NCBI GenBank assembly: GCA_949358305.1
Contig: OX442314.1
Coordinates: 3,782,001 to 3,846,000 of the forward strand
Reading direction: 5' to 3'
Source of the DNA: Strigamia acuminata
Taxonomy: Eukaryota
DNA: 64,000 nucleotides
Part shown: positions 3,151 to 46,789 of the stretch, piece after piece
Position numbering within the stretch: position 1 is the stretch's first letter
Layout of the letters: each line of letters begins with the position of its first letter
Position numbers and translations under genes: made by a program
The notes under the pieces: generated by a model
Seen by the model: only the letters and a program-made list of their open reading frames with translations
Told to the model about the DNA's origin: nothing
The model's database searches: none

Positions 3151-3152
3151 CG

Positions 3153-7606: not shown

Positions 7607-8268
7607 TAGACCTGTGCGCCGAGTCGGCTTAGCCGACTCGGCTCGGCGGCTGGTCGGCTGGACCCCAGCCGCCGCCGCCGTGTGGCGAGTCCTGGCGACA
7701 ATTTACAAGCCGCCGCCGCCGCTGATTTTCCGGCGTCGAACGGCTGAAATTTTTTGTAAAGCCTGGTTCACACTTGCGGATACGCCACGGATACGTTGCA
7801 TCCGTGGTTTGCTGCAAATGGGCTGTGATTGGCTGCGGAAATATTTTCTAGTTTTCCGCGCAATTTTTTTTTCGCAGCCAATCACAGCTCATTGTAGCAA
7901 ACCGCGGATGCAACAATTCCGCAGCATATCCGCAAGTGTGAACCAGGCTTAACAAAAAAAACAACATATTTTTGGATTTTCTTTCTTTTTTTTTAATTTC
8001 ACTTCTGTTTTCAATTTTTTTTCTTTTCTTTTTTTGGTTTGGAGGTTTTACAGGTTTATTTCGTATTCGTTTTGTTATTTTCATTATTTTTTATCGAAAA
8101 ATTTCGGCTTAGCCGATCAGCTGGCTGGCCGCCGCCGATACCATACGTCATCGGCTGAGCCGCCAGCCGCCGGCTCCTACGAACGAAGCCGATCCGAGCC
8201 GCCGCCATTTCGTGGCGATCAGCCGCAACAAGCCGCCGCCGACAAATTGGGCTCGGCGCACAGGTCTA
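7607..8268. mobile_element. hAT-type MITE (662 bp)
   Basis: 17-bp TIR TAGACCTGTGCGCCGAG; 8-bp TSD CTCCAGAT at 7599-7606 and 8269-8276; GCC-rich subterminal repeats. Confidence 0.92.
7760..7949. mobile_element. PIF/Harbinger-like palindromic MITE (190 bp) nested in the hAT MITE
   Basis: TIR AGCCTGGTTCACACTTGCGGATA; TAA on both sides; near-complete hairpin. Confidence 0.85.
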
Positions 8269-11200
8269 CTCCAGATGGGACGATCCATCTTTCATTTCGA
8301 TGGACTCATGGCACATTACGTCATCCGTTCATTATCATACCAAACAAGTATCCAATGGTACTTTTGGGTTGTGATTTCATGAATAAATTAGGAATCCAAC
8401 CTAATCCACAGACGATGTCGTGGAATTTCTTGCAACCTGTGGATGCAGATTTACCCTACATTCCGCAAGCGTTGTTAGATCGATACATTGAGAAACTAGA
8501 GGAACCAGATTCCTCATTTGTGACTTTCGCAAAAGCTTATGCTGCAAGCGTAACTCAATCAAAAATTGATGAACAGAATTTCATCCAGAAGTTAGTGGAA
8601 GAAGCTAACTTAAATTTGGAGCAATCTAAATTATTAGAAAAAATGTTGATCAAACATAAAAAGATCATTTCTAAAGAACCAGGCAAAACTCACTTAGTTC
8701 AACACAAGATCGAGTTAGACACGGACAAACCCATCCGCGTCCCCTTTAAGAGCATAAACCCTCAAAAAAGGGAAATTATACGTCAGCTTTGTCAAGATAT
8801 GATTGACAAAGGAATAGTCGTCAAGGCTGAAGGCGATTATGGGATGCGGCCTGTCTTAGTCATGCGACCAGGCAATGATCCGCGTATGTGTATCGATTTT
8901 CGACCAATCAATACACATACTAAGTACAACCCCCCTCAAATGCCAACTATTGAGGAAATCATGCGAGAAATCGGTGAATTCGAGTGGGTTAGTACGATAG
9001 ATCTGACCAAGGGATATTGGCAGATAGAGCTTCGTGAAGAAGACAAAGTCAAAACGGCTTTTTGGAGTCCAATGGGAAGGCTTATGTTTAAAGTAATGCC
9101 TTTCGGACTTGTTAACGCGCCTACTACTTTCCAAGAGTTGATGGAAAAGGTTTTAGGTGACGCTTACCGTAAGTTCGCCTGGGCTTACTTGGACGATATA
9201 ATCGTCGTGTCCAAATCGTTTGAAGAACACGTCAAACATTTAGATATAGTTTTTGCCAAGCTGCAAGAAGCAAATTTGCATGCCCACCCTGGAAAAACTC
9301 ATTTGTGTAGAAAGGAATTAATCTTCCTGGGATACAAAGTAGGAGTCAGTGGACTCAGCGTCGACCCTAAAAAAGTCGCCGCCATCACTGAATTTCCCGC
9401 TCCTACAAATTTGAAGGAGCTGCAGAGATTTCTAGGCATGGTAAATTTCTTCCATCGCCTAATCAAGAATTTGGCCACAGTGGCAGAACCACTACGGCCA
9501 CTCTTGAAAAAGGATGCAAATTTCGAATGGGAATTGCACCATCAGGCAGCGTTCGATGCAATCAAAGATCTGCTTACGAACGCTGAAACAATGAAGATGC
9601 CGGATTTATATTCGCCCTTCATTGTTCACACTGATGCCAGCAGGCAAGGTTTGGGCGCAGCCCTCACACAAAAGAAGATTGTGGATGGCGAAGATACAGA
9701 AATGCCATGCGTGTATGCAAGCCGAAGCTTGCAGCCCGCTGAGAAGAATTACACTGTGACAGAGTTAGAATGTCTCGCAGTAGTATGGGGATTACGCAAA
9801 TTTCGCCCATACTTAGAGTACACAACATTTACTGTACAAACGGATCACCAAGCCTTGAAATGGTTGATGTCGTTAGCCGACCCGTCTGGCAGATTAGCTC
9901 GTTGGCAAATGGAGCTAATGGCGTATTCATTTGAAATCCAGTACGTGAAAGGGCCATTAAATGTTGTCGCAGACGCATTGTCTCGTGCACCAGTCAGTGC
10001 ACCTGACGACCCGGAAGATGATGGTGATAACGATGATTTATTATCGTATTGTCCATCTCCTTGTCGAAGTTGGCAAATGGGAAAACTGAACGAGTTGCCC
10101 AAATCGATCATAGTGAATGAAGAAGACAATAATATTGTCACTTTTTGCCACAAAATTCATGATCCATCAGGGACACCTGATATCGAATTAAGAGCTATAA
10201 TGGCTAAACAATTCGAGTTGCCAACAACTAATGTTTTAATAAAAGCATTTGCAGCCAAAATTGCTAAGCAATTGGACTGCGATCCTCCAACGAGGAACGA
10301 CATTATTGAGGCACAGAAACAAGATAAATTCTGTCAAATAATTCGTAATTTTATTGTAAATAAAATATACCCAGAGTATCTGTACAATGCTCCAAACAAA
10401 AATCATTTCAAAAGAGTAGCAAGTACTTACCTTATTGAAGACGATATGTTACTTCATTATCATCCTACCTCTACAGATGAATTAGGAGAGGATGGTCGGG
10501 CACTCAAAGTTGTAGTACCCAAGAAATTGATTTATAAAATCATTTGGTTGATGCACGGACATCCCTTATCTGGTCACCCAGGTATAGCACGAACTATGTA
10601 CCGAACTCGAAGAGTGTACACGTGGAAAGGCATGAAACGCGACATAACTAGCTTTATTCAGCATTGCCAAGGATGTCAAGCATGCAAGCCTAGATCGAAA
10701 ACAGAAATGGAGGCTGCTCAAATGGGACCTTACGGACCTTTTGACTGCCTCAGCGTTGACTTGTCTGGTCCAAAACCATAAGGACTAGAAAGAATAACAC
10801 GCATATTTGTGTAATACTTGATATAGCTACACATTGGCTGGAATTATTTCCAATGTGTAATCCGACCGCAATTAAAGTCGCTAATTGCATATATCACTTA
10901 TCAATAACTTTTGGTTTTCCAAGACAAATTATAAGCGATAATGGACCACAATTTCGATCACTGGTCTATAAAGAATTTTGCAAAAAATTCGGAATGTCAC
11001 CAAAAACGACATCAATATACCATCCACAGGCAAACCCTGTGGAAAGAACAAATAGGGATATTAAATATATGGTTTCGATTTATTTAGATATTCACGACCA
11101 ATGGGACGAATATCTACGTGAATTCGCATTCAGTTTAAGAACGACTGTAACAAGAGGCAGAGATTATTCTCCTGCTTTCTTGAATTTTTTCCGAGAATTA

Positions 11201-11989
11201 CGTATTCCGTGGGATCCAAGGATTCCCGACGGAATTTTGGTTATTGACCCAAAAAATCCGCACTTGTATGTGCAGAAATTAGAAGCAATTATCGCGGAGA
11301 CTTATCAACATATGATGTCTCATGTTTTGGATTTAAGGCGTCGAGTCGAGGCCGAAAAATCAGACAAAAAATTCGATAATTTCAGACAAAATGATTTAGT
11401 CTGGAGAGAGTCACATATTCTCTCAAATGCCGCAAAAGGAATTTCTGCCGGTATTTCTCCGAAAAGAACAGGGCCATACGTAATTGTAAAAAGATTGCAA
11501 GGTGGCGCCTTTCAACTTCGTCGACTAGCTGATAATAAAAATTATCCAGCAGTCCACGGCACCGAATTACAGCCGTATTTTCCTAAATTCAACCAAGAAA
11601 TTTGGTTGGAAGGGGAAGAAGTAGGTCAAAAAACGAAAAACATCGTAAATACTTTGGATGACTCACAATTGTCCAAAATTCCTATTGACACGGAATCGAA
11701 TTCGATTGAAATATCGAAACCAAAAAATGACGAAGTCGCCCAAATCGATAAACAACTTGAAAATGTTTCTCTCGATGAAAATCTAGAAAAAGAAATATTT
11801 TTAGAAGATGAAACTTCATCAAAAAGTAAAGAAAACTCATCTGACACTCAAGGCGACTCAGATGACAATCTAAACAAACTGGATTGTTCTTCGAAGAAAT
11901 CAAAGTACAATTTGCGACCCCGCGTTCCGCGAGTCGCGAAATAACTTTTCTTTCACCTTTTGAAAGTTCCCAAAAGGTTCACGAGAGCA

Positions 11990-12235
11990 AACTCGTGACG
12001 TCATCAATAGTCCGCTATTCGATGACAACGTCTATAAGGCGTTATAAGGAATGACGTCATACGGCGTCCTCAAAACAAGTTCGTTTCCCCAATCAACGAA
12101 CTTAGCCACTTTTTCAAAGTAACTTGAACTGTAAGTAATTTCGATGATTGAGAAATTAATTTATTAGTATTAATGGTGCTAATTTTCTGTCAAGACGAGA
12201 GAATTCCACGTTTAGACAGAAAGCGTAAGCGTGAA
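11990..12235 (+). promoter_or_regulatory. Putative internal promoter and 5' UTR of Gypsy B accessory gene
   Basis: Two TGACGTCA palindromes (11996-12003, 12052-12059), TATAAGG twice, possible UTR intron GTAAGT 12131 to AG 12194. Confidence 0.45.
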
Positions 12236-15200
12236 ATGGCAGACGAAGAAGTCAATCTTCATCCCGATGATGAAATGCCGATGGACGAGGCAAACGGAGC
12301 CGTCCAGTTAACGCTCCAACAACGGGTAATTTATTAAAAATATTTTTACCAAGTGTTTCAGTCACGAAATTTGAGTGAAGTCAAGTTTTGTGACATCAAA
12401 CACGAGCCGCTCCAAGTTAAAAATGGCGGCTATAAAAGTCACGTGCTTCAAGCATGTGCGAAGGGAGTTGCCATAGCAACCAACATCCCTTAGTGGTTCA
12501 ACGCCACAAGCTTCAAGCTTAAATAATTACAAACAAGAAATTGTTTACTAATTATTAAATAAATTAATCAATTTTATTTATTTTTTCCTCTAGATTGAGA
12601 GAGATCGGGAGACGCCTGACGCGCTCCCGGATCACGTACCAACACAGCATCCGCTGATATTTCGGGCGGCGCTGCCCGAAAAGATCCGAAGACTCAAGAC
12701 GGATCGTAATACGTGGTGGAAGTTGCGCCATGAATTTTCGGGGGCCGCCCTTCAAGGATTCGGAGCCAAGGGCCGGTTCATCGACCGTCTTCGCGTCCCA
12801 GGTGTCGACGAAGTCACCTGGACCATGGAAGACAGCGCGCCAGGACAAGTCGCTTCAGACTTGCTGCACAACCAGTGGCCAGTAACGCCGCGAGAGCGTT
12901 ACGATCGCCGAAAGGTGATCAAGGGAGGCCGTATTAATTACGGCGCCCTTACCCAGTTGAGGAAGAACCTCAAAACGACCCGGAAGGAGGTCGTGCAACG
13001 GTACCGAAAGTCCGTTCGTGACGGGAAGCCGCAATTTCCCGCCACACAAACCGAGCTCCATCAATTGGCGCTCGCCGGGTGCTTTAACGACTTTCCGGGG
13101 TTTTTCCCGTCAAAAGCACTCCGAGCTGCCGCCGCGCTGCTCTTAGTCGATGAAAATCGACAGCTGACTCGACAACTCAAGGCAGATGAGCAAGCGCGTC
13201 TTGCTCTTCCGTTTTACCCGGCGGACGAAATTCCGGCCCCAACGCCGATCGTTTCTGCGCCGCAAGACGAAGATTTGAGGGTGGGACGACTCCCTCCCGC
13301 TGGATCGAGCACTGGACCGCAGCGACGTGAATCCAGCCGCGACCGAGAGGAGCGACAGAGGCGATCGCGCCCATACACCACGGACGCGCCTCCAAATCGT
13401 CCACCGTCGCGAAGAGGTCGAACTCCGGAGTCATTGTTCTCCTCGTCCTCCCAGAGCGTGGAATCCGACACGACTGTCAAGTCCGCGCGCAGTGGCAGAA
13501 CGGCGTCCACTTACAAAGTGGACAACCCCGCCACTCCATACGCAATGCGTCGTGTTATCGGTGATATCTCTCCCGACTTTAGCGTGCCTGTGCCAGGACA
13601 CGCTAGCCGCTTGCCGGAACATGGATATGTTGCCCGCTTGCCTGCCGGAGTTAGTAACTTACAGCTCCGGCTGTTTTTCAACGAGTCTTTCGGACCCCAG
13701 TGGACCTGCTACGAGCAGCAACCCATTAGAGCGCAGCAAGAAGTGCTCAAGAAGCTGGACGCCTACCAAAGCGCCCAGCTAGCCGAATCACAGAAGGATT
13801 GGCAGAGACTAGCCGAAAGGCTAGAACTCTCCGACATCAAAACCATTGATGATCCCCGTCTGATGGACTTTCAGCGTCAGCTGATTCCGGGGATGACCAG
13901 GGTGTTGTACCCTGGTGTTCTTCCTTCGCCAGGACAGGCGTTGGCGGCCATTACCTACCTGTGGACCGCCCCGATGGGCCTGTCGGAGGAAAAAGTCAAG
14001 TTGTGGTACCACATCCGACTTGACCCGCCTACGATTCTAGCCGAATTAATAAAGCAGATCGTAGCAAACGGCGAAACTGAAGAAGAAGCCGCCGTTCGAT
14101 TGAGGACCGAATGGTCATTTGCGAAGGCCACGGCGCAGCAAGCTCGAAGCATTCCGCCTCCCGCTACCTGCGCCACAGCAGCCGCATCGTTAGCTGCTTT
14201 CCAGTCGGCTCAAGAAGCGCCTGGATGTTCGTTTTGGACGGAGAACCGAAGAAGTTCTCAAACTCCATCCGGAGTTCAAGCGGTGACGATGCCCCGCATG
14301 CTCCCAGGTGCTGGTCGAGCCCAAGGACGAGGGAATTTGCCCTCGCCAACCTCCGCACTCGCGTTGGTTTTTGCTGGCTCGCCGAGCCAGTTCGATGACG
14401 TCGGAGATGAGGACTCACGTCCGCCGCCGCCGCCGCCGCCAGTCAAGCCAATGAAGAAGGAATCGGCCTTCAAAACGTTGATGCGGTTGTACCCGCATTT
14501 TTACTTAACGCCGGACACACGGACAATGTTAAGTAACAACAGTAAACTCTCGAGACGAGTGTTTATGTGGCTCGAGGACCACATCCGGGTATTAAGCCCG
14601 CCGTCCATGTTGGACTTTAGAACCACTTTTGAGTTATTTAAATCATTTTTCGATGTGAAATGGCTTTGAAACGTTTATTTTATCATTTATCGGTAATTGT
14701 TTCCATTTTCCTGGGTTATTCAGTGTTTATTTAGTGTTTTCATGCTTGTTTGTCAGGAGAATGCATGATACCGGGTTAAATGTACTCAATACATTAGGTT
14801 TCATGCATCCTCTATCTTGTTCTTATGCTTTTCATTATTATTGTTTATAATATCGGCCACCAGATGTCTCTGGCACATTACAAATGGCCGCTCACACGGG
14901 TAGTGTGTTTCCTTGTGTTTGTCCAGTGATTCTGGACCCATTATGTAAGTTTTCTCTTAATAAATGTTATATTTTTGGTTAACTATTGTATTTAGTTCGG
15001 CACTACACGTTTCTATAAGTGTAGTGCACGCGAATTTGATCGTAAGTCCGCTCAAACTCGCGTACGCGCATCACGCGCATTTGTCCGCACTTAGAAGTGC
15101 GTTTGACTCAGTTTTACGCTTCCTATCGCCTATTTCGGCGATATTTTTGCGCCACACAGCTACAAGTGGTAGCAGAGGCCTGGAAAGCCACCAGTGCCTC

Positions 15201-18200
15201 GTTTTTCCATTAATTTTCCGTGAATTTCGCGATTTTTCGCGATTTTTGCGAAAAAAAATTTTTTTTTCAGATTTTCGACGATTTCCGGCAGTCAACAACG
15301 TCTTTATGACGTTCACAACCCCGGAGTGCGGTCGTAATCGTCGATTTTTGAATTTTTTCAACCTTTTTTCGTGTTTTTCGAGTTAAAAACACTGTTTTTT
15401 TGTGTTTTTCGACTTAACACTGGAAAAAAAAGCAAATTTCCAAACATTTTTAAGTTGAAAATTTATATGGAAAAGTTGAATTTACTACGATGAGGAAATT
15501 TGTTGGAAATATGTTGGAAATGATTACATATTTCCAAACTTCTGGAAATGTGTAGTAAATCTAGAGATGAAAACTAATATTTCCAATAAGTTGTAAATCT
15601 TTTGTTCAAAGTGTTATGTTTCCAATCAGTTTTCTTTAAGTTGGAAATGTGTTGTAAATGTATGAAATGAAAATATGTCATTTCACAGTGATTATAAAAA
15701 TAATGTAAAGGCAAGAAAATGCATGAAATTTAAAGGTAACATTTAAACACATGAAATGTAACAGGCACAAGGTAAAATACAGTCAGGAACATGAAAATTG
15801 TATCAATTTTGAACTCTGAACAGAAAATAATGCCTAAAACGAACCAATTTCGAACGTGTGGGCACAATATGGAAACGACCAATCAGGGCGCAGGGACGAA
15901 AAAATACGTGTTTCGTCGATGAAACGTACCGTCGTTAATGAAACAAACAACCGGCTCGCACACTTAAAATACAATATATCTCAAACAATAAATACCAAAT
16001 TGACTGTTAGAGAATTCAAATCAAAACCATTTAACAAAGATTTAGCTATATAACTTATGGGAAGTTACACATTTAATTATCACAAGTCATGCTAGCCTAG
16101 TGGATAGGGTAGTGGTCTTTAGAACAAAGAGTTCCAGGTTCGATTCCAGCAGAGGTCAAGGTAAGAAAACTATAAGATTAAAATAAATTTAAATAAAACT
16201 GTTAATAAAACATGCAAATTGTGATCTAATCAATGAAAACTAATTGTTGAATGGTGTTTGAAAAAAAAAAATCAAACTGCTTAAAAAAAAAATTGAGTTT
16301 GTGTATTTAAATTTTTCAAAATGGAGGGTAGTAGATTTTTTTATTGGAAATATATTGGAAATATATTGGAAATTTATAGGAAATATATTGTGAAATTTCA
16401 AATTTTCACAATTGAAAATGTTTGTAAAGTTATTGTAAAAAAAGTCACGGAAATGGTCTCTTTCCAGATTGTAAATATGTTTGGAAAAGACTTATTTTCA
16501 ATTGTTTGTAAATCTAATTTACAAACTTGTAAAATCCATCTACCTATATATTTACAATTCTTTACAAGTGAGTAAATCTGATTTTTTTTCCAGTGTAAAA
16601 ACACTGCTTTTTGTGCATTTATTGTGCAAGATAGCGACAATTGACCTAGGAAAGGTCTTGTTCTTTTTTTTTCCCTCTAATTTTTCGTGAATTTCGCGAT
16701 TTTTCGCGATTTTTGCGGAAATTTCATTTATTTTCAGATTTTTTCGCCGATTTTCATCATTTGTCACGTTCCGACAACGTCTGAGCGACGTTTTCATCCA
16801 GAAACGGGCATAACCCGCTGTCTGCACCCCGGAGTGCGACAGTATCGGCGATTTTCGAGAAGTTTTTCCCGGTTTTCAAAATCGGTCGGCGATCTTTTGA
16901 AGAATTCCGCATTTTTTATGCGCGGTGTGCACAGGGACGTCTGTGCATACAGATTCACCAACTTCTCCTTCTTTTTATTTCAGATTTCGAATTTATTTGT
17001 TAATTTTAAGTTTTTGGAGTGGGTCCCGATTAGTATCGGCACAGCCCTTCGGACATTCCGTCCAAGCTGTGCTTGTATTCTTAGACAAGGCTGAGCCCTG
17101 CGCCACCTAACATTCCCGCGGCCCCAGGTGGTCATAAAGGACGTTAGGGGGACACTTGTCTAAGGTTCTTAGCCAATTTTAGCATTGGCTCCCCGTCGAG
17201 GTTTTTCCGCTTCTAACAACGTTTAGTGAAGTGCTTCGAGTGAAAAGTGCTCCGATTACGTCTTTAGTGCCTCGAGTGTTTATGCGTGCTCATTATCGCC
17301 ATTATCTCCGATTTTCCTCCGGAAAAATGCAGACAGCAAGAGCCAACTTGAATTGGAATCGGTACACGAAGGAAACATCGGCTTTTGCTATGGACAATCG
17401 TGGATGCAATCAATCCCGACCTCCTCGTCCGATTTCGATGGTTCGCTGTTTTAATTGCGGCTTTTTCGGCCACTACGCGAATAAGTGCCCCCGCCCTCGC
17501 AAACAGGGCAAGGAACCGCAACCGGTCGCGTCTCAACAAGGCCGACCCCGCAGTAAGAGCAAACGACGGCAGAATAACAGTTCGCAGCAATCCGGTGGTC
17601 AAAACCGTGATGTTTCTCGTCCCCGAAGGGACGCCGCTTACCTGTTGTCGGCTCCACCGGTGATCGAAGCTCCGGTTGTACATTTTCTCCAGTCCCACGA
17701 ATGGATTGTCGATTGTGGGGCCACCGACCACGTTTCGCACGTCAAAGCGTGGTTTACGAACTTTGTTTCCGTTGTCCCGTTCAACATCGAGTTAGGCCAG
17801 GGCAGTTCGAGGGTCACAGGCAAAGGTGACGTTCCGGTCAAGTCGCTCATCGATGGCTGCGAATGCACCGTATTGCTCCGCGACGTCTTATTCGCACCTG
17901 ACTTCGGCGCAAATCTTATCTCGGTTTCTCGGATTGATAAATGCGGACATCACATCCACATTCACAACTCGGAATTGCATACGTATGAAACGGACATCAA
18001 ACTAAGTGTTCTTCGGGCGAAACAGAAGTCTGGACTTTATTTCGTGGATGGGCTCATCTCGCCATTCGCCGCTCCGACTAATGTTTCGAGTTCGTCTGTT
18101 TCATCATCACTTCCGACTCCGACACCGACCACTCTAGTGACGAAGGAAGAGGACTTTCCCGCATTGCCCAAGTCTTCCAACAAGACTAAGAAGAAGTCGG

Positions 18201-21200
18201 CTGACAATATGACCGATTTCCGCTTGCCCGTCTCCTCCAACACCTTGCTTGTCCCTTCACTTTTCCCTACCAGTCCTGCTCCTATTCCCGGATCCCAACC
18301 TCAACAGATCCGGATGTATTCCAATGCCCTCACATCTCCTCCTCCCGTTGCCAAGTCAAACGCAGCATTACCTCCCAAACCAGTTAATCCTTCGGTTGCC
18401 AACGTCGCAGACGCCACGGGATTGTGGCACGGCAGGCTGGGTCACCTGCATACGAAGGCCATGCGGACTTTAGCGGCTAACTCCCAGGTTTATGGGCTTG
18501 ATCCAGCTGCTGTTCGCCAGGAACTTTCCTGCAACACGTGCCGTGTTGCCAAGTCCACGCGTGCTCCACATAAGCCAATTTCCGCGCCTTCAACCACGAA
18601 ACCGCTTGAATTGCTTCACATGGACGTCTGGGGCCCGTCGAGACTGCCTTCCATCGGCGGTGCTAATTTTGCCTTCACCATTATCGATGACGCCACCAGG
18701 TACGCCTGGCTTTTCCCGATCGCCCGTAAATCTGATGTTTTTGCTACGTTTAAAGACTTTGTTTCTCGCGTTGAACGTATTGCTGATTGCCGAATTAAAA
18801 CAATTCGCACCGACCGTGGAGGAGAATTCATTTCGAGGGATTTTGACCGTTTTCTTGCCGACAAGGGTATTGTTGCTCAACGGACCAATCCCGCATCGCC
18901 ACAGATGAACGGTGTCGCCGAACGCCTGAACCGGACAATGGGCGACTATCTCCGCTCCATCAACTCCGAAACCGGATTTTCGCACACGCTTTGGGCTGAA
19001 CTTGCCGTGACGTTCACATATATCAAAAACCGCAGTCCGCATTCGAAGCTCAACGACGAAATCCCATACATTTTGTGGCGCCAGCGTGCTCTTTCCGTCA
19101 GACATTTTCGTAAGATTGGTTCCAAGTGCTGGGTACACTTCACCGCACCTGGACGCAACAAACTGGATCCTCGAGCGTGGGAAGGATTTCTCGTTGGCTA
19201 CGCTTCGGGAACTCGAGGGTATCGAGTGTGGAATCCGGCTACGAACACCGTCACCGAATCTGTTCACGTCCAAATCGATGAACGGCAGAACTTTAAGCGC
19301 TCGCCCTTTTATGTTCCAGATCCGGATGACAATGCTCCACCCATGGAGGAGCCTGCTCGTGGCCACACCCCGTCACGTGTCACTTTTCGTGATAACTTTC
19401 CAACTCAGCCTTGGCCTCGTCGACGTCACGATTCGGATAACGACTCTTCTGCTGACAGCAGTGACGAGGATGGTATTGCCAGTCGTGCTCCCTCCGTCGC
19501 TTCGAGTGCTCCGTCTTTCGCTTCATTCGCACCATCTCTTCCTGCAGCTGATGGTCTCATCGCCGCTGCTGACGGCTTAGCTGCTACGACTGATGGCTCT
19601 GTTACCGACGCTGATGGCTCTGTTACCGTCGCTGATGGCTCCGATAATGTTACGACCATTGCAGGACATGGACAATTTACTCCGACCGTACGTTTCACCC
19701 GCTTGTCTCATCTACGGCGTTCGATGTCCTACCCATCTCTCCCGGGTCTTGACGACACCGCAGCGATGTCTGAACAGGGTTCAGATTTTGACGAAGACCT
19801 TCTCGACGAAGCGGCTGCCTTGCCTGTCCGACTTCCGGGTACGCCTAATTTGGCGCCTTTACGCGCTCTTCATTGCCCTTGGAGTTTTGTTGGCGGCGTT
19901 TCGCCCTTCAGCGGATGGAGGAGAGAAGAGCATCTCCGGAAAGATCAGGTTCCGGGGAGGATTAAAGTGGACGTTTATTATTATCCGGAGCACGGTGTCC
20001 GCTTGCGGTCGCACACAGATATCGCCGCTTATTGTTTCGCACACCGGATACCGTATGATGAGTCCGTTTTCTTCTTCGGCAATTTAGAACACCACATGCC
20101 ATATGCTCCGCCATCGCCTCCTCGTGTCCACATGTGTTTTCGGGAACCGGCCACATACGCCGAAGCTGTGAAATTGCCCGAAGCACCAAAATGGACCGAA
20201 GCAATCGACGAGGAACTTTCGACTTTCAAGCAACGAGACGTTTATAAGGAGGTTCCGAGACCCCCTGACAAGACTGTGCTCGGTTGCAAATGGATTTTTA
20301 AGTTCAAAAGTGACATTACCGGAAAGATTACCCGATATCGTGCTCGACTGGTCGCCCAAGGATTTTGGCAGACAATGGGCGTTGACTACGATGAAGTTTT
20401 TAGTCCCGTAGTCAATTTTGTCCTAATCCGTTTCTTCTTTTGTCTGCTGGTTATTCTCCTCGGATGGAGGAACACGCACCTCGACGTGAAATGTGCCTAC
20501 CTCTACGGCGACCTTGACCACGAGATTTATATGCGGATTCCCGCTGGTGCCACATGTTCCTCGCCCGACAACGTATGGTTGTTGACCAAGTCGCTTTACG
20601 GTCTTCACCAGTCGGGGCGCATGTGGTACCAGAAACTTAATGAAACATTGACAAAACTTGGATTTCAAAAGTTTCCAGCATGTAATTGTGTGTACGCCTA
20701 CGGACATTCGGCCATTATGCTGGTATACGTCGACGATATTGTTTTATTTTATGCTTCGGAAAACATCAGGGATCGAATACTCAAGCTGATCACGGGGCCA
20801 ATCACCAAACTGCTGGGAGTCGAGTTCGAGCGTCGTGACGGGAAAGTCTTTATGACTCAACGCAATTACATTGACAAACTCCTCAAAAAGTTTAATGTTT
20901 CATCTGACGCGCTCATCAAGGTGCCAGTCACACCTGGGACCACGTTAGTCAAGGGACCGCTCACCGACCTTCCGGATTTTCCGTATCGATCACTCGTCGG
21001 ATCTTTATTGTTCCTGGCTTCACGTACTCGCCCCGACATTTTGTACTCGGTGATCGCATTATCGCAGTACAACAACTGCTACACCGAGAGCCATATCAAG
21101 TGTTTGCTGCAGGTCCTTCGTTACGTCGCGAACACGAGCGAGTACGCCATCGAACTTTCGAAATGCGATTCGAGTCAACTGTGGGGTTGCACAGACGCCT

Positions 21201-22513
21201 CTTGGGCCTCCGACATCGCTACATCGAGATCATTCGGCGGATACATTGTTTACATCGGAAGTGTGCCCATTGGCTGGAACTGCAAGAAGCAGACCAGCGT
21301 CGCTTGCTCCACAATGGAAGCCGAATTTGTGGCACTTGTCGAAATCGTCAAAGAACTCTATTGGCTCGACAGTATTTATCAAGTGTTTCCACCTTTACGT
21401 CGATTATCGAAACCGATCATATTTTCCGATGCCCTCGCCTCGATTCAGTTCACGAACAACGACATCGAGAACTCGAAAACGAAACATATTCGAGTGAAGT
21501 TTCACTGGCTTCGTGAGTGGCACATTGCCGGATGTTTCGAACTCCGCAAAATTCCGGGTGAGATAAATGTATCCGACATTTTCACCAAGTGGCTCAGTTC
21601 AGAGCGTCTTTGAAATTTATTATCTCGGATTTTCGTCTCGAAGTAACTTTTTTTCGATTGTTTAGCACCGACATTTTACATCGAAGGAGGGAATTGTTGG
21701 ACTTTAGAATCACTTTTGAGTTATTTAAATCATTTTTCGATGTGAAATGGCTTTGAAACGTTTATTTTATCATTTATCGGTAATTGTTTCCATTTTCCTG
21801 GGTTATTCAGTGTTTATTTAGTGTTTTCATGCTTGTTTGTCAGGAGAATGCATGATACCGGGTTAAATGTACTCAATACATTAGGTTTCATGCATCCTCT
21901 ATCTTGTTCTTATGCTTTTCATTATTATTGTTTATAATATCGGCCACCAGATGTCTCTGGCACATTACAAATGGCCGCTCACACGGGTAGTGTGTTTCCT
22001 TGTGTTTGTCCAGTGATTCTGGACCCATTATGTAAGTTTTCTCTTAATAAATGTTATATTTTTGGTTAACTATTGTATTTAGTTCGGCACTACACGTTTC
22101 TATAAGTGTAGTGCACGCGAATTTGATCGTAAGTCCGCTCAAACTCGCGTACGCGCATCACGCGCATTTGTCCGCACTTAGAAGTGCGTTTGACTCAGTT
22201 TTACGCTTCCTATCGCCTATTTCGGCGATATTTTTGCGCCACACAGCTACAGTCCATTCTCCATGATCGGCTCCTGAGGGCACGATTAGCGCCGACGAAT
22301 CCAATCGAGTTTGCGGCCATGGGATTCTTCAATCCCGCTAATTCTTTGAGAATCCTCCAGGTTTGGCTTCACGTCAACCCTGGAATGGTCTCCGGACCAA
22401 ACGCAGGTCGCGACCTGTGTATCGTCAACGAGCGATCAGATCCGCGAAACAACGCCACGGACATGATGCGCCCGTCGACGCCTGAGAAGAGTCAGGGCAT
22501 GGACGAATCTTAA
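12236..22513 (+). CDS. Spliced accessory protein (ORF3) of Gypsy B, ~786 aa, unknown function; exon 12236-12325 plus 12594-14607 and 22257-22513, interrupted by Copia-1
   Basis: 90-nt acidic first exon, phase-0 intron GTAATT...TTTTTTCCTCTAG; frame restored exactly when Copia-1 plus one TSD is removed; several blocks align with Gypsy C ORF3. Confidence 0.8.
15418..16595. mobile_element. Non-autonomous CACTA/CMC-like DNA transposon in Copia-1 5' UTR
   Basis: TIR CACTGGAAAAAAA / TTTTTTTCCAGTG; TAA on both sides; AT-rich with TTGGAAAT/TTGTAAAT subterminal repeats. Confidence 0.8.
16086..16157 (+). other. tRNA-derived (SINE head-like) Pol III promoter sequence
   Basis: A box TAGCCTAGTGG (16093-16103) and B box GGTTCGATTCC (16137-16147) at tRNA spacing; acceptor stem does not pair properly. 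Confidence 0.6.
17327..21613 (+). pseudogene. Copia-1 gag-pol polyprotein (ZnK, PR, GAG-pre-IN, IN, MBD-like, RT, RH) with capsid region missing
   Basis: CFNCGFFGHYANKC, WIVDCGAT, WHGRLGH, IRTDRGGEF, YVDDI, TDASW; versus Copia-2 it lacks ~190 aa of gag and 8 aa in RT and has a premature TGA near the end. Confidence 0.9.
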
Positions 22514-22565
22514 ATTGGATTCGTTCATTTCTCTCCATGTAAGATTCGTCTTAAATGGGGGGATG

Positions 22566-23523
22566 TGTGGTGATCTCAAATATTTCACCAACTTAGAAGA
22601 TAAATTAATTGTGTCTTCTAATTAATTTGACTGTGGCACACGCCAAGTCAGATCATGTGACGAAGGGGAGGAAACTTCCCTAGGCACATATCACCCCAGG
22701 TTGGCTGGGGTGAAAACGGTAATTAACCGTTATGGTGCAATATTGGGCAATAATCCTTTGTTGCACCAGTTTCAGCTAATTGCGCAGATTATCTGCGCAA
22801 TATTGAAGCGTGCCGGGCTCGCGCCCTAGCTTCAATCGGGACTCTTGACTAAATACACAAACCACAAACATCACTGCTTTTTCCTCCTCTGAATTAGTAT
22901 TGATAGTGGACCGTGTATTCCAAGTTTCACCAGCTTGCTTTGTAAAACGTACGAAGCCAGCTATCCTGCTTGAATTAGCCGTCGCTAATTCCAGCAATCG
23001 AACCGAGAAGTTTCCCGAAGTGACGTGAACCATCGCCGTCGCAGCAGCGCGAACTGTTGCCACCGCCATCGAACGCCAGTCGGACGCCCGTGACCGTGAA
23101 CCACCGCCGCCGAGCCGTCGTACGAGTTACGGAAGGACCCACGAGAACCATCGTCGCCAGGACCATCGTTCGTGAGTCGTATTACGAAGACATTTTGTCT
23201 TCGAAACAACTTCCAGTTGTCAAGCGCCATCGCCGCGCTTTGTAGCTTGCAACAGTCGTTGCAAGCCCTTCCTTTGTTTTCCCGCTCATTATTTCGCGAC
23301 ATTGTCGCTTCGTATTACTTTCTTTCATTACTAGTCATTGTATAAAACCGAATAAAGAATATAAAGTGTGATTTTCATCTAATAAAACTGTCTCTTTATT
23401 TCTTTCTAATTAAATTAACCCTAGATAATTTACGGCCGCCGATTGTAAGTCTTTATAAGCATTCACCTGCGGTTTCCACTTGATTTAATAGAAATTAAGT
23501 GTGAAAAAACCCGGATCGCAGCA
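22566..23523 (+). repeat. 3' LTR of Gypsy B (right boundary inferred)
   Basis: Follows PPT; TGTGGTGATC...GATCGCAGCA imperfect terminal inverted repeat; AATAAA at ~23351 and ~23381. Confidence 0.65.
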
Positions 23524-24235: not shown

Positions 24236-25289
24236 GTATTGTCGCGCTCAACTCTAACCGTCGCTAACTCGTGGGTTGATTACTTAATTCGACTAACTCA
24301 CTACCGCTTTGCTCAAGCGGTTTACCCAAAGAAATGATTACACAGATATAAAAGGTAAAATATAATATAGATTTATTCTGCGGGGCAATGTACAGATATA
24401 TCTTATATATATATAAAGGGTAAGTAAAAGGTAAATCGGAATGGGTGATGGGAAATGGAAAGGTAAAGGTAAGATGAAAGCTGGCTGGAATCGGCGAGGT
24501 CGTCTGTTGTCTCGTGCGTGTCCAAGATGGCGTCCTCGTTGTGGCAACGTGATGTCGTCTTGGGCCGGCGTGGCAATATGGCGTCCTCGGCTCGTCTCTG
24601 GCTGGTCCTTCGGGCTCACGCTGGTCGGGCGCGAGTGAATGCTTAGTTAAAAGACTTACTTCGGGCTGTTGTCTAGGTTTTTGTGTGGTGTCCGGCGATC
24701 ACACAGCGGCGGACTCTTCTGGTTCCCGGCGGTCACACAGCGGCGGGAACGCTCGTCGTGGTTTTACTGCAGTTTAGGCTTGTGCGACCGTTTGTCTGCA
24801 CAACTCGCTAAACTGGAGTGGTTTTTACTATTTCTAGCTGGTGTGCTAAAATAGTGTGGTAATCTTATCTCGCAGGTTACTCTGCGGAGTTTGACACTGA
24901 CCAAACGTACTCACGGTAAATTGTCCTTTGTCCTCGGTCAATCCCAGTATTTTTACTTGGGCCTGATCTTGTAGGACGACGGATTTTACGTGTGTTTCTC
25001 GTTTGATGGTTGTGTTGGTTCTGCCCGCTCAGTGCAAGGCACATTCCTTTGCACAAAGCGGGGTTGACAGGTGACCGGAATCACCCAATGGTGGGGTGGA
25101 CGAGCCATCCCCACTCCCTCAGGGCAGACGCCTGTCCATTGACTAGATGTCAATGCACTGAGGGAAGGGAGACGCGCTTGCGGCTCCCCTTACACCCGAA
25201 ACGAGGTCACGAGAGAAACTCTTCGTTGACCCCGGTCCAGTCGGGTCACAACACTTCCCCCTCCGAGCTCAGACCGTGGGGCTGAGCGA

Positions 25290-28200
25290 TCACTTCTTTC
25301 CTGGGGGACCCGACACTGAGTCCGTCACCTGGGCGTAACTCACTCCAGGGACAGGCGGTTGAGTGCCGGGTGGCGCGGGTAGATCGCCTACTAGCGCCGA
25401 GGACCGATCTCGGGGGTCCTCATGCTCCGTAATGAAGCATAATGCATGGCCGTCAACTGGCTCATGCGGGGCACGCGTCCTCTCGTGCAACCAAACGCTC
25501 GGGATGTAGGCGGAGAAGCCGGTGTTCGTATGCCGGATGGCATTGGCTTCCGTTGGCGTCACTGGCGCACGGTGGGCTCTCAGCAACCTCTGGTGGAAGA
25601 TGAGGTCTTTAGTCTTCCGGATCTGGTTGTGAAGCCAGATGAAGACCGATTTGCCTTTGTCCCGCTGCGCGAGGATAAACCTCCTGGTCGCCGTCGTCAT
25701 CGAAAGATGGGGAAACTCGTCGATGATTCGCCCATAATAGTCTGGTGGAGGCGGTGCCGGCTTCGGCTTCTGGGTGGCCGCGGGAATCACGGCTTGCGTC
25801 GTTGTCGCCGCTCGGGCCGGTGAGGTCCCGGGCGGTGTCGGCTTCGTTTGCTCGACGGACCTGACGGGTGGCGTTCGGCACAGCAAGCGCTTTGGTTTAC
25901 CCGCCACTTCGAACAGGGCGGGTCCTTGCGGGGATATCTCCGCAGGCATTGGTGGCGGAATCGGAACTCCGCTCGTCGGCGAGATCACCATGTCTACATC
26001 CTCTGCCGATTCTTCCGTCTGGATGGTCAGGGCGCGCAGTTGTTGTGTAGGCGCCGCTGTCCAGGTGGCGGAGGTGTAACGAAACGCCGTGCTTCGCAAC
26101 TTGTACCCCTCAAATTCGGGGTTTACCACATCCCTGGTTAGCTCGTACCGAGTCAACACAGGGTCGGGCAGAATGGAGCTCCACTCTGCGAGGAGTGCAC
26201 GGGGAACCTGTACACCCTCTCTGTCCACGACAGACCATGCGGCCATCGCCTGACGCCCTTCTCCGAAGAGTGCTGGGGTTAGCAGCTGCTGTTGGTCCTT
26301 GAAACCACTTCGGACGTTTATTTAACGCTTTTTCGATGCGTAATGACGCTACCTGAACTTTTTCACATCATTGGTTGTTATATTTTCTTTCCCCAAATGA
26401 TTTAGTGTTTATTTCCTACTTAACTGGTTGTTACCAGTTTATTTCCGTATATTTACTTTATATTGTAAGGGAAATGCATGGTGCCTGCATTAACTGTGTC
26501 TTAACACACTGGGCATCATGCATCGCCTATCTGTTTATACCTGTGAGTCGCTCGCTTCTGTCACCAGAGCGCTCTGCCTTTTATTCCAAGATGGCGACGC
26601 ACACTGCTAAGTGTGCTCCTGTGCTTTTCAATCCTGTTTTCGTAAGTTTTAGGTTAATAAATCGTTTATTTTGTTTATAAATAATTCGTTTCTTGTGTCT
26701 GCACGTAGATAAGTGCAGACACCACGCAAATTCGACCAGAACCGGCTCGAATTCGCGTACACGACGCGCCGCACGTCTCGTGCGTGCTATATCGTACGTG
26801 TTGGCTTATTTTTAAGCGTTTCCACTGCCTAGTCTGTGCTGTTTTTGCAGCATACCACCACAATTGGTAGCAGAGGCCTGGAAAGACACCAGGGCCTCGT
26901 TTTTTCCTTAATTTTCCACAATTTTCGCGATTTTTTCGCGAATTTTGCGGAAATTTTCTATATTTTCAGATTTTTCGCCGATTTACACCGATTTTCGACA
27001 TGCGACGACGTCTACACGACGTTATCACCGAGAAACGGGTGTAACCCGCTGTTTAGCACCCCGGAGTGCGACAGTATCGACGATTTTCGTTCGTTTTTCG
27101 CGATTTTTCGTTTAAAATCGCACATATCCGTGTTTTTCACACGAGGATCGCGTGTTGCGACGTGCACCGCGACTGATTCGTCAATTTCGCCTTATTTTGC
27201 CTTTCAGAGTCGAATTACCTTTGTTAATTTTAAGTGGGAATTTTGGTGTGGGACAATTAGAATCCTCGGCGCCCTTCGTCCGAATCCGGGCAAGCGCCGT
27301 TGTATTTTTCGGTTGTGCTTGTCGTGGTACAAGTGAGGTTTCCCGCGGCTCCAGGAAGTCGAACGGACCCTCTCAGACTGGCAACCGAAAGCTATTTAAT
27401 TCCTTCAGAAGGAATTGCCCATTCTTGGTTTCCGCTTTGACAGTGCTACGGAAAGTGCTTCGCATCGTAATTTGTGCTTCGTTTGTGCGTCGATTGTGCG
27501 TCGATTGTGCGTCAATTTCCCATTTCTACGCATTTTTCTCCGTGCAATCATGAAAAAGGCCACCGACCAGTCGTCAGGCCATGTGCCGATTCTCGTGACC
27601 GGCAATTACGAACACTGGCACCGTGCAATTAAAATGCTATTGATGTCCGACGGCGTATGGCACCACGTCACCGAAACGGAGGAACTAGTGAAAGCCAACG
27701 TCGATGAAGACGTTTGGCGAAAATGGCAACGTCGGAAAGCCCGAGCGCTGGGGACCATTTATTGCCACGTCTCGCAGGCCAAACAGTCGGCCCTCGACGG
27801 TTGCACCACTCCGAAACAGGCGTGGGACATTTTAGCGAAAATTTACGCCCCCAGCTCTCTCGCCCGCCAAGCGGCGATGCGCCGTGAGTTCCTGCAGCTC
27901 AAGTTGGAGCCCGGCGAAGAAATGGCCGATTTCCTCAGCCGCGTTGACCTTATGGTCCGCCAACTTAAAGACGTCGGTGAAGACATCCTCCCTCGACATC
28001 ACGCGTACCAGTATTTAGACTTTCTTCCGGACGAATACGACCAGGCGACTTTTGCCATTTATCATTGGCCGCTGGCAGAGTTTACCCCGGCTAAAGTCTC
28101 CGATCAGTTGTTGTCGGAATATCTACGATTAAAGTCGCATTCGAACCGAAACTCCGGTAATTCCTCCGCTTATGCTACTGGGCGACAAGGACGTAACCAG

Positions 28201-31200
28201 TCGCGACCCCCGCGCCCGCTTGCGCAGGTGCGTTGCTTCAATTGCAACGAGCTTGGACACTACGCCAATAAGTGCCAGCATCCTCGCAAGCAAACAACTG
28301 GGCAACAGCCGGTAGCTACGCTTCAGACACGATCTCGCAGCAAGAGTCGACGCCGCAATAAAGGCTCGAATCCGAATGTAAACCCGAATCAACAGCAGCA
28401 GGGACAGTTTCGCGAGTCTTCACGCCCGCGCCGAGATGCAGCATATCTCCTGTCCGCACCACCTGCGATCCAGGTTCCTACCGTTCATTTCGTCCAATCT
28501 CACGAATGGATTGTTGACTGCGGCGCCACCGACCACGTTTCACACGTTAAATCGTGGTTCTTGGACTTTGTTGAGGTCGTCCCTTTTAATATCGAATTGG
28601 GACAAGGAAGCTCCAAAGTTACCGGAAAAGGGAATGTTCCAGTCAAGTCACTCATCGATGGCTGTGAATGCACCGTACTTCTCCGCGATGTTTTGTACGC
28701 ACCTGATTTCGGCGCTAATTTAATTTCGGTTTCGCGAGTCGATAAATGTGGGCATCACATACACATTTACAATTCGGAGTTGCATACATATGGGACGGAT
28801 ATCAAACAAAGTGTTCTTCGGGCGAAGCAAAAGTCAGGACTTTACTTCGTAGATGGACTAATTTCGCCATTTGCGTCGCCGACTGTTGTTTCGAGTACAC
28901 CGCCCATCCCAATGTCACCTCCGACTACTGCGCCGATGACTCTCATCACGAAGGAGGAAGATTTTCCCGCGATGCCCTCAAAGAAGTCGAAGAAAATATC
29001 AAACGTTGAAATGACCGACTTCCGCTTACCTATCTCTCCCAACACCCTACTCGTGCCTTCTCCTTCCCCGATCATCCCCAATCCTGTTGCCGGATCTAAA
29101 CCACAACAGATCCGGATGTATTCCAACGTCCTATCATCTCCTCCTCCTCCCGTTGCCACGACTAAGGCAGTCCCACCTCCTACAAAGGTCGTAACGCCGG
29201 CTGCGAACGTTGCGGATGCCACGGGATTATGGCATGCCAGGTTGGGCCATCTCCACACCAAAGCCATGCGGACTTTGGCGAACAATTCCCAAGTTTATGG
29301 ACTCGATCCGGCTGCGGTTCGACAAGAACTTTCCTGCAACTCATGTCGCATTGCCAAGTCCACGCGCGCCTCGCATAAACCGATTCCCACACCTTCGACG
29401 ACCAAACCGTTGGAGTTGCTGCACATGGACGTCTGGGGCCCGTCAAGACTGACTTCGATTGGCGGTGCTGATTATGCCTTCTCCATTGTTGACGACGCGA
29501 CCCGATATTCGTGGATTTTTCCGATTGCACGCAAATCCGACGTTTTTGCGACTTTCAAAGACTTTGTCTCTCGCGTTGAACGTATTACGGATTCCCGCGT
29601 CAAATCAATTCGCACGGATCGCGGCGGGGAATTTATTTCTAAGACTTTTGACCGTTACCTCGCTGACAAGGGCATTGTCGCACAACGGACCAATCCCGGA
29701 AGCCCGCAAATGAACGGGGTCGCCGAACGCCTAAACCGGACGATGGGCGACTATCTTCGCTCCGTTACCTCCGAAACCGGTTTTCCACACACACTTTGGG
29801 CTGAACTCGCTGTGACATTTTCGTACGTTAAAAATCGCAGCCCGCATTCGAAACTTAACGACGAAGTTCCATATGTTTTATGGCGCCAGCGTGCCCTCTC
29901 TGTCAAACATTTCCGAAAAATTGGTTCTAAATGCTGGGTGCATTTCACCGCACCCGGGCGCAACAAAATGGATCCACGGGCGTGGGAAGGATTCCTCGTA
30001 GGTTACGCCTCCAACACTCGCGGTTATCGGGTTTGGAATCCGGCTACGAACACCGTCACGGAATCCGTTCACGTTCAAATCGATGAACGTCAGAATTTCA
30101 AACGCTCGCCGTTTTACGTTCCGGATCCCTACGAAAATGCTCCATTCATGGAGGAGCCTTCTCGCGTCACTACACCGTCTCGTGTCACTTTTGACGATGG
30201 CGCTTTCCCATCTGTCCCCTGGTCACGTCGACGTCGTGATTCCGACGATGAATCATCTAATGACGATGATGAATTCCGCCATCGGGCTCCATCAAGCGCT
30301 TCATCAGTCGCTTCATATCGCTCCGTCCTCGAGGAGGTCGAAGAGGACATTGCTGATGAATTGCCTCCTCCTATTCTGTTTGCGGACGATGTACCGGAGG
30401 ACATCGATTTGGACGTCACGCCTGACCCACCACTTCCGCTTTACCGTCCTCGGAGGAGATTACGTCCCGATGCTTTGGCTCGTCAACCTCACACCCCTGA
30501 GGCCAGCGATAGTGAACTCGACGTTGATCACGATATCGAACAATTTTTCGAACGCTATCCCGAACGTGATTTCGAGCACGACCCCGAAGATGATCCACTT
30601 GATAATCTCCTCGATGATCTCCTCGATAAGGCAGCCGCCTTACCAGCGGCCGCTGCAACGCCTGCACCGCCCCTCGCTCCGTTACGCGCTCTTCACTGCC
30701 CCTATCGTTTTATTGGTGGAGATACGCCCTTCAGCGGATGGAGGAGGGAAGAGCATCTCCGGAAAGAACAAGCGCCTGGCAAAATCAAGGTCGACGTTTA
30801 TTACTATCCGGAGCACGGTGTCCGCTTAAGGTCGAGAGGGGACATCGAAAGATATTGCGTCGCTCACCAACTTCCGTATGAGGAGGACATTTTCTTTTTC
30901 GGCAACCTCGAACATCAATTGCAGGACGAGCAACCTGTTCATCGCGTCCTTATGTGTTTTCGAGAGCCGTCCACGTACGCCGAAGCTGTTAAGCTACCCG
31001 AGGCACCGAAGTGGACCGAGGCAATCGATGAGGAGCTCACGACTTTCAAGGAACGCGAAGTTTATAAGGAAGTTCCACGACCCCCGGACAAGACAATCCT
31101 CGGGTGTAAATGGATTTTTCGGTTGAAATCGGATGCCACCGGGAAAATTCACCGCTACCGTGCTCGACTTGTCGCACAAGGTTTCCGCCAAACAATGGGC

Positions 31201-35815: not shown

Positions 35816-36334
35816 GGCGAGGAGCGCGCACAAAAAGCTCAATCACGATTGAAAAAAGGATGATAAAACTATCTCAAAAAACTCGATAAAAACGTTAAAA
35901 ACGAGGATCACGCACGAATGCAGCGATCAGCTGTGAAAAGCGGAAGTCCGTGTGAACACGAGGTAATCGCGATGGATTCTGGGTAATATACTCCAGAACC
36001 CGGGTGTTTGAGACTAGTGCGCACCTACCCGTGCGCATGTTACGCTACGGGTCTCCTTTGTCTTCACTCCCGTGCGCGACTGCTGCTACGGGGTCTTTTT
36101 TGTTTTCACTCCCGTGCGCGATTGCTGCTACGGGGTCTTTTGCACGCGGTATCCGACCCGTGCCGATAAATTTGCTACGGGTCCCGCGCTTCCACGCCAT
36201 CTTGTGACGTGAATTCGACCGATATCCGCTTTGTTGGACTTAGCGGAATTTTCTTCGAGTCTCGCAACGTGATGGCTTGCACTATCGGTCGATTAGAATT
36301 TATTTTTAGTGCCGCCATCGACTCGTAATTTATT

Positions 36335-40456: not shown

Positions 40457-40474
40457 TTTTTTGACTCGTTTTTT
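40411..40474 (-). promoter_or_regulatory. -1 frameshift signal of Gypsy C with duplicated slippery site
   Basis: A AAA AAC twice (40474-40468, 40462-40456), then stem GCGCAGGCGG / CCGTCTGCGC; pol in -1 frame. Confidence 0.82.
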
Positions 40475-43400: not shown

Positions 43401-43824
43401 GCGTAACTGGCGTGTCTAGTGCCGAATTAGCGGTCGTATTTGAGGCCGTCTTTTGTATCGGAGACGCTGCTTTCGGACTGCCCACCTCGGTGTCGTGCGT
43501 TAGACGAGGCGATTGGTTACGGGATAAAACCTCGTTTCCGCTCGTCTCGCCGTCACGGTTAGAACGCGGCAGTTTGGAGTGAGATTGCTCTTCACCCCGC
43601 TCTGTCTCGTCCAATCGCTGCCTCGTCTCGGCGCGAGACGGGTGCGATGCCTCTGATGCGCTTCTACGATCGGGTTTAGGCTTACGCCGTTTTTGCCTCG
43701 CTTCGTGCGCTGAGGCTTTGGGTAAGGGACCTCCAGATCGCAAGTGATAGTCGGCGCCTTTACGACTGCCGGCTCTCTTGTTTGCGTCGGAGTCGGAATC
43801 TGTTACTCGGGTATTATCTGCCAT
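40429..43824 (-). pseudogene. gag: Gypsy C gag (~1027 aa), interrupted by a MITE
   Basis: Removing the MITE gives EKRYY-SALPEAEK.. in frame with CFKCNQPGHYSNEC; homologous to Gypsy A gag. Confidence 0.9.
41143..41452. mobile_element. Tc1/mariner-pogo-type MITE (310 bp)
   Basis: TA-CCGTACTGCCTCGATTTAACGCCG...CGGCGTTAAATCAAGGCAGTACGG-TA; internal CCGGCGTTTA repeats. Confidence 0.9.
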
Positions 43825-43876
43825 TTCTTGCTTTGGGTATGATGTAATCACAGGTTAGAATCAGTTATTCAACTTG

Positions 43877-46786: not shown

Positions 46787-46789
<3 letters not shown>

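Follow-up and report, generated by a model that had tools for sequence, protein, structure and literature searches.

A selected accessory gene with predicted splicing in the env position of two Gypsy families of Strigamia acuminata

What does a long open reading frame in the env position of a Gypsy retrotransposon encode if it is not an envelope protein? This question is raised by a stretch of 64,000 nucleotides from Strigamia acuminata (contig OX442314.1, positions 3,782,001 to 3,846,000), in the following called the window. The window is a eukaryotic nest of long terminal repeat (LTR) elements, in which Gypsy B on the forward strand and Gypsy C on the reverse strand carry an additional gene between pol and the polypurine tract (PPT), here named open reading frame 3 (ORF3). 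Our analysis identifies ORF3 as a real, element-encoded and selected gene which looks like a new protein family, and whose anatomy leans towards a role in RNA export or splicing control.

ORF3 has the same layout in both elements, namely an acidic 90-nucleotide exon with its own ATG, a predicted phase-0 GT-AG intron which is AT-rich, and a GC-rich long frame ending 52 (B) or 36 nucleotides (C) before the LTR. In B, the predicted first coding exon (12236..12325, forward strand) comprises 30 codons, acidic overall, from the ATG at 12236 to the GT donor at 12326, and in-frame ATGs at 12173, 12275 and 12281 use the same donor. The predicted intron (12326..12593, forward strand, 33% GC) has the best donor and the best acceptor of the region and leads into the 5' part of the long exon (12594..14607, forward strand, 671 codons), which encodes an N-terminal block, an R/S/P-rich linker, a middle block, a P-rich linker and the first half of a conserved C-terminal domain. 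The second half of this domain and the stop codon are located in the tail (22257..22513, forward strand). In C, all parts lie on the reverse strand: the predicted first coding exon with 30 codons, likewise acidic overall, and a strong start context (35726..35815, ATG at 35815), the predicted phase-0 intron (34881..35725, 36% GC), the 5' part of the long exon (33110..34880, 590 codons) with a basic run resembling a nuclear localization signal (NLS) at residue 196, and the tail (25290..26284, 330 codons) with the end of the middle block, a P-rich linker and the entire C-terminal domain. If both sides of the Copia elements inserted in each gene are joined, the products amount to about 786 (B) and 951 (C) residues. 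Both lengths and the exon-intron-exon layout had been given correctly in the original prediction made from the DNA alone, although its coordinates, 12236..22513, cover B alone and include 7.6 kb of Copia. The basic run it had described for C was recovered, and the same regular expression finds none in B; basic stretches and R/S-rich linkers are present in both proteins.

The long frames are not due to chance, since composition-matched simulations gave stop-free runs in 0 of 2000 cases for exon 2 of B, 0 of 2000 for exon 2 of C and 1 of 2000 for the C tail. Judging from the protein alignments, ORF3 is homologous between the two families. The C-terminal domain of about 110 residues is common to both (score 158, 0 of 3000 shuffles), and blastp aligns it with 37% identity over 70 residues (E 2e-11). 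It keeps conserved His, Cys, Glu, Asp and Arg residues. Among the shared blocks of the original prediction this one proved strong and the first block modest, the latter being reached by 17 of 2000 shuffles within the N-terminal 200 residues and losing significance when the 5' parts are compared in full (151 of 300). The second block was marginal; it was missed by blastp and reached 5 of 2000 in a post hoc window and in another register. A middle block that had not been described before was found in addition (30 of 3000 shuffles). All shared blocks are colinear and separated by R/S/P-rich linkers in both proteins, in agreement with the Pro/Arg/Ser-rich linkers proposed earlier. At the DNA level, the gaps of B and C have almost no similarity despite the equal layout of the 90-nucleotide ATG exon.

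Both frames are split by young Copia elements which are not part of the gene. Copia-1 (14608..22251, forward strand) lies inside the C-terminal domain of B and is bordered by a 5-bp target duplication and 557-bp LTRs that are 99.8% alike. Copia-2 (26290..33109, forward strand) is inserted in antisense orientation into the middle block of C; its target duplication likewise measures 5 bp, and its 573-bp LTRs are identical. Both encode a methyl-CpG-binding domain (MBD) between integrase and reverse transcriptase (RT), above the Pfam cut-off (E 6e-5 and 3e-5). In this respect the two insertions resemble CopiaMBD elements, which are known from Strigamia and Stegodyphus (PMC6673714), and by themselves would point to an arthropod as the probable host. 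Targeting of Copia to CpG-rich DNA was considered and rejected, as the flanks are not unusually CpG-rich by the standard of the window (99 and 114 of 325 windows as high). For a comparison of copies, contigs of four public sequencing runs were aligned to B and those of the same four runs to positions 33000-36400 of C; two runs of other organisms contained next to none of the words of this stretch. Of six runs listed, three contained part of the stretch, and none of the six was recorded as RNA. A joint skipping Copia-1 (14602 to 22252) occurs in three of the four runs, from two studies, among the 15 of 111 joints listed, and a loose end at the edge of Copia-2, beyond which the letters continue past the insertion, occurs in three of the four runs among the 21 of 101 rows listed. 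Therefore, both families include copies without the Copias, in line with the earlier proposal that the long exon was intact before their insertion.

The same contigs allowed us to ask how ORF3 varies. The best-supported variants (40 of 141 rows listed for C and 40 of 1142 for B, where rows from the protease part, the miniature inverted-repeat transposable element (MITE)-like insert and the second pol frame were set aside) were classed site by site, which differs from a codon-model dN/dS. The 40 listed C variants fall into exon 2 (24), exon 1 (1, synonymous), the intron (14) and the gap (1). In exon 2, 17 of the 24 are synonymous compared with 7.4 expected (13 of 200000 simulations as extreme), as against 2 of 24 in the two remaining frames. 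C ORF3 has a rough omega of 0.19, comparable to the 0.21 of B pol, in the first frame of which 11 of 17 listed variants are synonymous. Moreover, none of the 12 listed C indels (of 20 rows), representing about seven separate events, lies in coding sequence, which makes up 58% of the stretch (p 0.002), although exon 2 shows a gap of one letter in a contig of low depth and another contig contains 18 gap letters. The single listed indel of B ORF3 spans 3 nucleotides (12 of 88 rows listed). ORF3 is thus under purifying selection in C, and the synonymous excess, the frame control and the indel avoidance together identify it as a real, selected gene. The rough omega of C gives no sign of the dN/dS near 1 that was proposed earlier as a refutation. 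B alone gives no significant result.

How ORF3 would be expressed was assessed from splice signals scored with a rough matrix. Splice signals in keeping with the earlier description of the gene as spliced are predicted, and so is the splicing itself. In each region, the acceptor preceding the long exon scores best, with values as high at 17 (B) and 24 (C) of 6568 AG sites. The first in-frame ATG of B exon 2 is codon 78 and thus follows the shared block at codons 22-45, so B should need splicing from an upstream coding exon. Alternative pairs of ATG and donor number 6 in B and 11 in C, with a 90-nucleotide option in both. Further short introns are predicted in the 5' untranslated part of B ORF3 (12131..12194, forward strand; donor 160/7192, weak acceptor 639/6568) and upstream of exon 1 in C (35931..36028, reverse strand; donor 88/7192, acceptor 143/6568). 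Their acceptors, in C at 35930, could receive a splice donor from the LTR. Such a donor is located upstream of the primer-binding site in C (44316) and, with the same 11-mer, in a further element, Gypsy A (3554). A donor-acceptor pair upstream of the ATG exon together with the shared LTR donor suggests a doubly spliced message of the tax/rex kind or a start site after pol. In the contigs, coverage of the C intron resembles that of the exons, and the 5 joints listed include none that leaves it out; therefore, the integrated copies seem to derive from RNA in which the strong acceptor was retained, though contigs drop rare forms and intron-less copies may go unseen. One run of unknown kind (X6), which covers C exon 2 and the intron in part, at low depth and without a splice joint, was not used as evidence.

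Two palindromes which we take to be CRE-like follow B pol (11996-12059); at least two occurred window-wide in 27 of 100 shuffles. Motifs presumed to be YY1-like number 10 in the window compared with 2.9 expected (0 of 100 shuffles) and lie mostly in LTRs, with single ones at 12420 in the B intron and at 36195 in the C gap. Close to ORF3, both kinds of motif make an internal promoter possible.

A strong match to a described ORF3 or env family, which would have spoken against a new gene, was sought in Pfam, NCBIfam, PDB, protein sets of 1.84 billion and 5.8 billion sequences, the ESM Atlas and contig scans. Pfam and NCBIfam gave nothing above cut-off for any piece of ORF3, the only trace being a GDSL match (E 0.084, below cut-off) in the N-terminal part of C, and PDB sequences gave one chance match (E 0.26). 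The large protein sets were queried with the last 162 residues of C, the 5' part of B and the B+C alignment. There were 0 hits among 7995 candidates for the B 5' part and 0 among 1073 longer proteins for the alignment. The sole HMMER hit for the last 162 residues of C (1.84 billion representatives) was a six-fold tandem repeat and was rejected; in this search, a relative separated as widely as B and C are from each other (35 bits) would fall near the E 0.001 limit. In the ESM Atlas the C-terminal domain found no usable match, and the B middle block scored at best 0.87 to unnamed clusters, which is a lead only. Contig scans found the C-terminal domain in none of 446 metagenome and none of 21 viral stretches; scans with pol found nothing in 1 and in 127 viral stretches, and two short loci of 29% identity out of 397. 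In the RT-RNase H core, B and C share 61% identity and fall into a single clade (FastTree support 1.0). Their nearest database relative is 46% identical, the best of 120 relatives listed, none of which has an ORF3-like stretch. Since the pol lineage is so poorly covered, its being unsampled is enough to explain the lack of ORF3 relatives.

Modelling of the fold, which the original prediction had recommended, was carried out and remained uninformative. AlphaFold reached pLDDT values of 34 for the C tail alone and 39 for the C-terminal domain in a three-row alignment. With models of such low confidence, neither the absence of viral Foldseek matches at E 0.001 nor the best VIA-align result (Z 3.2, root mean square deviation 4.1, 64 aligned residues) says anything on the fold. 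The His-x-Ser/Thr motif is characteristic of 2H-phosphodiesterases; as it fits once in C and not in B, this reading of the C-terminal domain was dropped. Neither the family nor its intron-containing layout is described in the literature searched, Repbase, subscription journals and supplements lying beyond that scope.

By these comparisons ORF3 is not env, since it lacks signal and transmembrane segments and matches no family, as had been argued from the DNA. A hydropathy scan evaluated by hand detected no signal peptide or N-terminal anchor, the 30-residue start being acidic with hydropathy below zero, and no transmembrane segment in B or C; the best 19-residue Kyte-Doolittle means are 1.26 in B and 0.64 in C. 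C has no furin-type site and B one R-x-R-R in a charged linker. In errantiviruses, the Env ectodomain is flanked by a signal peptide on one side and a transmembrane segment on the other (PMC13524379). ORF3 shares position, length and predicted subgenomic splicing with these F- and gB-type proteins, but lacks their signal peptide and transmembrane segment as well as a shared furin site and a Cys scaffold (PMC13524379, PMC8096092). Nor does it appear to be sORF2. The FAST-like sORF2 fusogens of the MDG1 group are likewise accessory products of env-less arthropod Gypsy elements, with 60-210 residues, one transmembrane segment and a myristoylation motif, whereas ORF3 is four to fifteen times longer and soluble (bioRxiv 10.1101/2025.03.14.642691).

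LTR elements of rotifers (PMC5408684) and plants (PMC7264820) are known to have extra non-env reading frames downstream of pol. The ORF3s of bdelloid rotifer LTR elements encode GDSL, DEDDy, coiled-coil or transmembrane proteins, typically from spliced messages, and are also family-specific frames in the env position of invertebrate elements; ours, in contrast, matches none of these enzymes or membrane proteins and has its predicted intron inside the coding sequence (PMC5408684). Extra frames between pol and the 3' LTR of plant elements usually encode transmembrane segments when in sense, and many others are antisense; like ORF3 they are conserved, present in most copies of a family and functionally unassigned (PMC7264820). 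A closer parallel is CERV of the Caenorhabditis elegans element Cer1, a spliced, lineage-restricted, three-domain nuclear protein which lets Cer1 export unspliced RNA (PMC10309623). ORF3 likewise is a large non-env protein of an LTR retrotransposon, with spliced RNA (predicted here), no homologue outside its lineage, several folded domains (again predicted) on flexible linkers and a basic NLS candidate (PMC10309623). However, exons 1-3 of CERV are in the gag frame, whereas the predicted ORF3 exons follow pol and an ATG of their own fits both elements, though splicing from gag is also conceivable; moreover, the 517 residues of CERV include a Cys-rich loop and a G-protein-like domain, neither evident in ORF3 when compared by description (PMC10309623). 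In human T-cell leukaemia virus 1 (HTLV-1), Rex is made from a doubly spliced pX message and exports unspliced RNA (PMC3434621). A regulatory frame beside the 3' LTR, double splicing and a short middle exon, all predicted here, recall tax/rex. HTLV-1 differs in having env and small overlapping proteins in place of one long protein in an env-less Gypsy element, so that the analogy is one of layout and no homology is claimed (PMC3434621). By the features tested, ORF3 belongs neither to CERV or Env nor to sORF2 or the rotifer enzyme ORF3s.

The original prediction had offered trans-activation, RNA export and anti-silencing as functions, and these are indistinguishable from sequence. We tentatively suggest that ORF3 is a lineage-specific accessory gene of env-less Gypsy elements whose product might act as a nuclear regulator of genomic-RNA export or splicing, like CERV or Rex. 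This is the likeliest single reading because of the predicted layout, the soluble, basic, R/S-rich protein and the NLS-like run of C. The message would be doubly spliced, from the LTR donor to the short ATG exon after pol and on to the long exon, and would yield a protein with an acidic N-terminus and three folded blocks on R/S/P-rich linkers. In the nucleus this protein might bind RNA or chromatin of the element and favour full-length RNA, which serves Gag, Pol and packaging, over the spliced message. Unspliced genomic RNA would thereby escape splicing and get to the cytoplasm. Any element with strong splice sites has to get its unspliced RNA out of the nucleus all the same, a task which CERV solves for Cer1 (PMC10309623).

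Several points weigh against this proposal. Splicing and expression of ORF3 are predictions, the matrix behind the splice scores is rough, and the exon 1 donor of C ranks only fourth in its region. The evidence from B is weak on selection, with 4 of 6 listed variants in exon 2 synonymous (16707 of 200000 simulations) and the single listed variant of the tail non-synonymous (0 of 1 synonymous). The searches returned no homologue or fold that would point to RNA binding or export, and B has no lysine-type NLS by the regular expression that finds one in C. A conserved Cys finger as in CERV is absent, for the B-C alignments contain no shared Cys cluster of the C4-type loop and only one shared Cys, in the C-terminal domain. 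At 790-950 residues ORF3 is larger than CERV (517 residues), and Rev and Rex are far smaller. Furthermore, we know of no export protein in env-bearing gypsy elements, which keep their splice acceptors, so that a retained intron need not imply one.

Other functions have to be weighed against RNA export. A nuclear trans-activator or anti-silencing factor, modelled on Tax, foamy-virus Tas or VANC of plant DNA transposons, would bind element DNA in the LTR or post-pol region and raise transcription or block methylation or piRNA-guided silencing; this is unlikely, though well worth considering. The acidic N-terminal exon of both elements, the basic stretches and the hint of an internal promoter from two perfect CRE-like palindromes in the 291-nucleotide post-pol gap of B and the YY1-like motifs would fit it, but no DNA-binding family matches, the number of CRE-like motifs in the window does not exceed chance, the ORF3 regions show no CpG depletion and the VANC model comes from plant DNA transposons. 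MBD-bearing Copias in the same genome suggest methylated transposable elements (PMC6673714), and VANC is cited as a precedent (PMC12859917). A cytoplasmic helper, acting against small-RNA or innate defence or as a scaffold placing particles or genomic RNA in the oocyte, is rather unlikely. It would account for a soluble, modular, low-complexity protein with poly-proline linkers, for one PPxY-like motif in C and for the NLS-like run missing from B, but the PPxY-like motif is missing from B as well and the searches run revealed no similarity to known suppressors.

It is improbable that the C-terminal domain is a captured metal-dependent nuclease or hydrolase resembling the bdelloid DEDDy and GDSL ORF3s. 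Enzymatic ORF3s are known (PMC5408684) and this most conserved part retains catalytic-type polar residues, but it has no sequence match in Pfam, NCBIfam or PDB, and the single GDSL trace sits in the N-terminal part of C. A very divergent env or fusogen would explain the position, the env-like length and the predicted splicing. This is highly improbable given the acidic N-terminus, a best hydrophobic window of 1.26, only 5 and 9 Cys in the long exons and the lack of a furin-type site in C, as errantivirus Env has signal and transmembrane segments (PMC13524379). Finally, a non-functional passenger of GC-rich captured DNA, open by chance, would be in line with the absence of homologues elsewhere and is scarcely credible. 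The synonymous excess, the frame-specific control, the indel avoidance, the colinear homology between families with 61%-identical RT-RNase H cores and open frames far beyond chance all speak against it, and the variant classes of C refute it in large part.

Apart from the split ORF3, both copies in the window have a disabled gag or pol. Gypsy B (forward strand) consists of a gag remnant, a split pol encoding RT, RNase H and integrase in two frames (7953..11944, break near 10760-10781), and a PPT and 3' LTR (22556..23400, LTR start 22566, end not fixed); it has no 5' LTR in the window. Its protease part is separated from the rest of pol by the MITE-like insert (about 7607-8268), which has 14-bp terminal inverted repeats, an 8-bp duplication and a further inverted repeat inside, and other copies in public contigs are without it. 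Where the B 5' LTR and most of gag would be expected (4417 to about 6290), a PPT is followed by LTR-like DNA, which has the highest summed contig depth of the B stretch compared. Gypsy C (24240-44910, reverse strand) has identical 1014-bp LTRs (3' LTR 24240..25253; 5' LTR 43897..44910, with the strong splice donor at 44316), a PPT and a 4-bp target-site duplication. On the same strand, its pol (36335..40486) is in one frame with the complete Ty3/Gypsy order of protease, RT, RNase H and integrase, and its gag (40429..43854) is split by an insert at about 41157-41434. The gag of Gypsy A (2-3976, reverse strand) matches the C-terminal part of C gag at 43% identity; pol and any ORF3 of this element fall outside the window. 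The primer-binding sites of A (3130-3150) and C (43875-43895), both on the reverse strand, are nearly identical and presumably correspond to tRNA-Pro. Elsewhere, a DIRS-like element (49918-54194) encodes an RT, an RNase H trace, a Dam-like methyltransferase (E 7e-5, below cut-off) and a tyrosine recombinase, and an intronless frame of 624 residues (56482-58356) matches nothing above cut-off in Pfam or NCBIfam. Inverted repeats of the MITE-like kind, together with two short tandem arrays, occupy 46767-47560, 59300-59859, 55152-56180, 54316-54703, 49034-49455 and 54730-54894. The CpG observed/expected ratio is 1.23 window-wide and about 1 or higher in every region measured except the B gag remnant (0.55).

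In animal germ lines, it is mostly open how simple LTR retrotransposons export genomic RNA that contains introns and how they evade silencing, CERV being the one worked-out retrotransposon protein found in the literature searched. The presence of a large, soluble and selected ORF3 in two Gypsy families which are deeply split and high in copy number adds a new testable candidate and a new protein family, and a long frame in the env position should not be called env by position alone. It is conceivable, if doubtful, that an env-less Gypsy lineage independently evolved the layout of a complex retrovirus, with a pX-like message that is spliced twice and a large regulator of several domains, from a new family, switching between spliced and full-length RNA. 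If true, the ORF3 regulator would be a second, unrelated solution after the nematode CERV.

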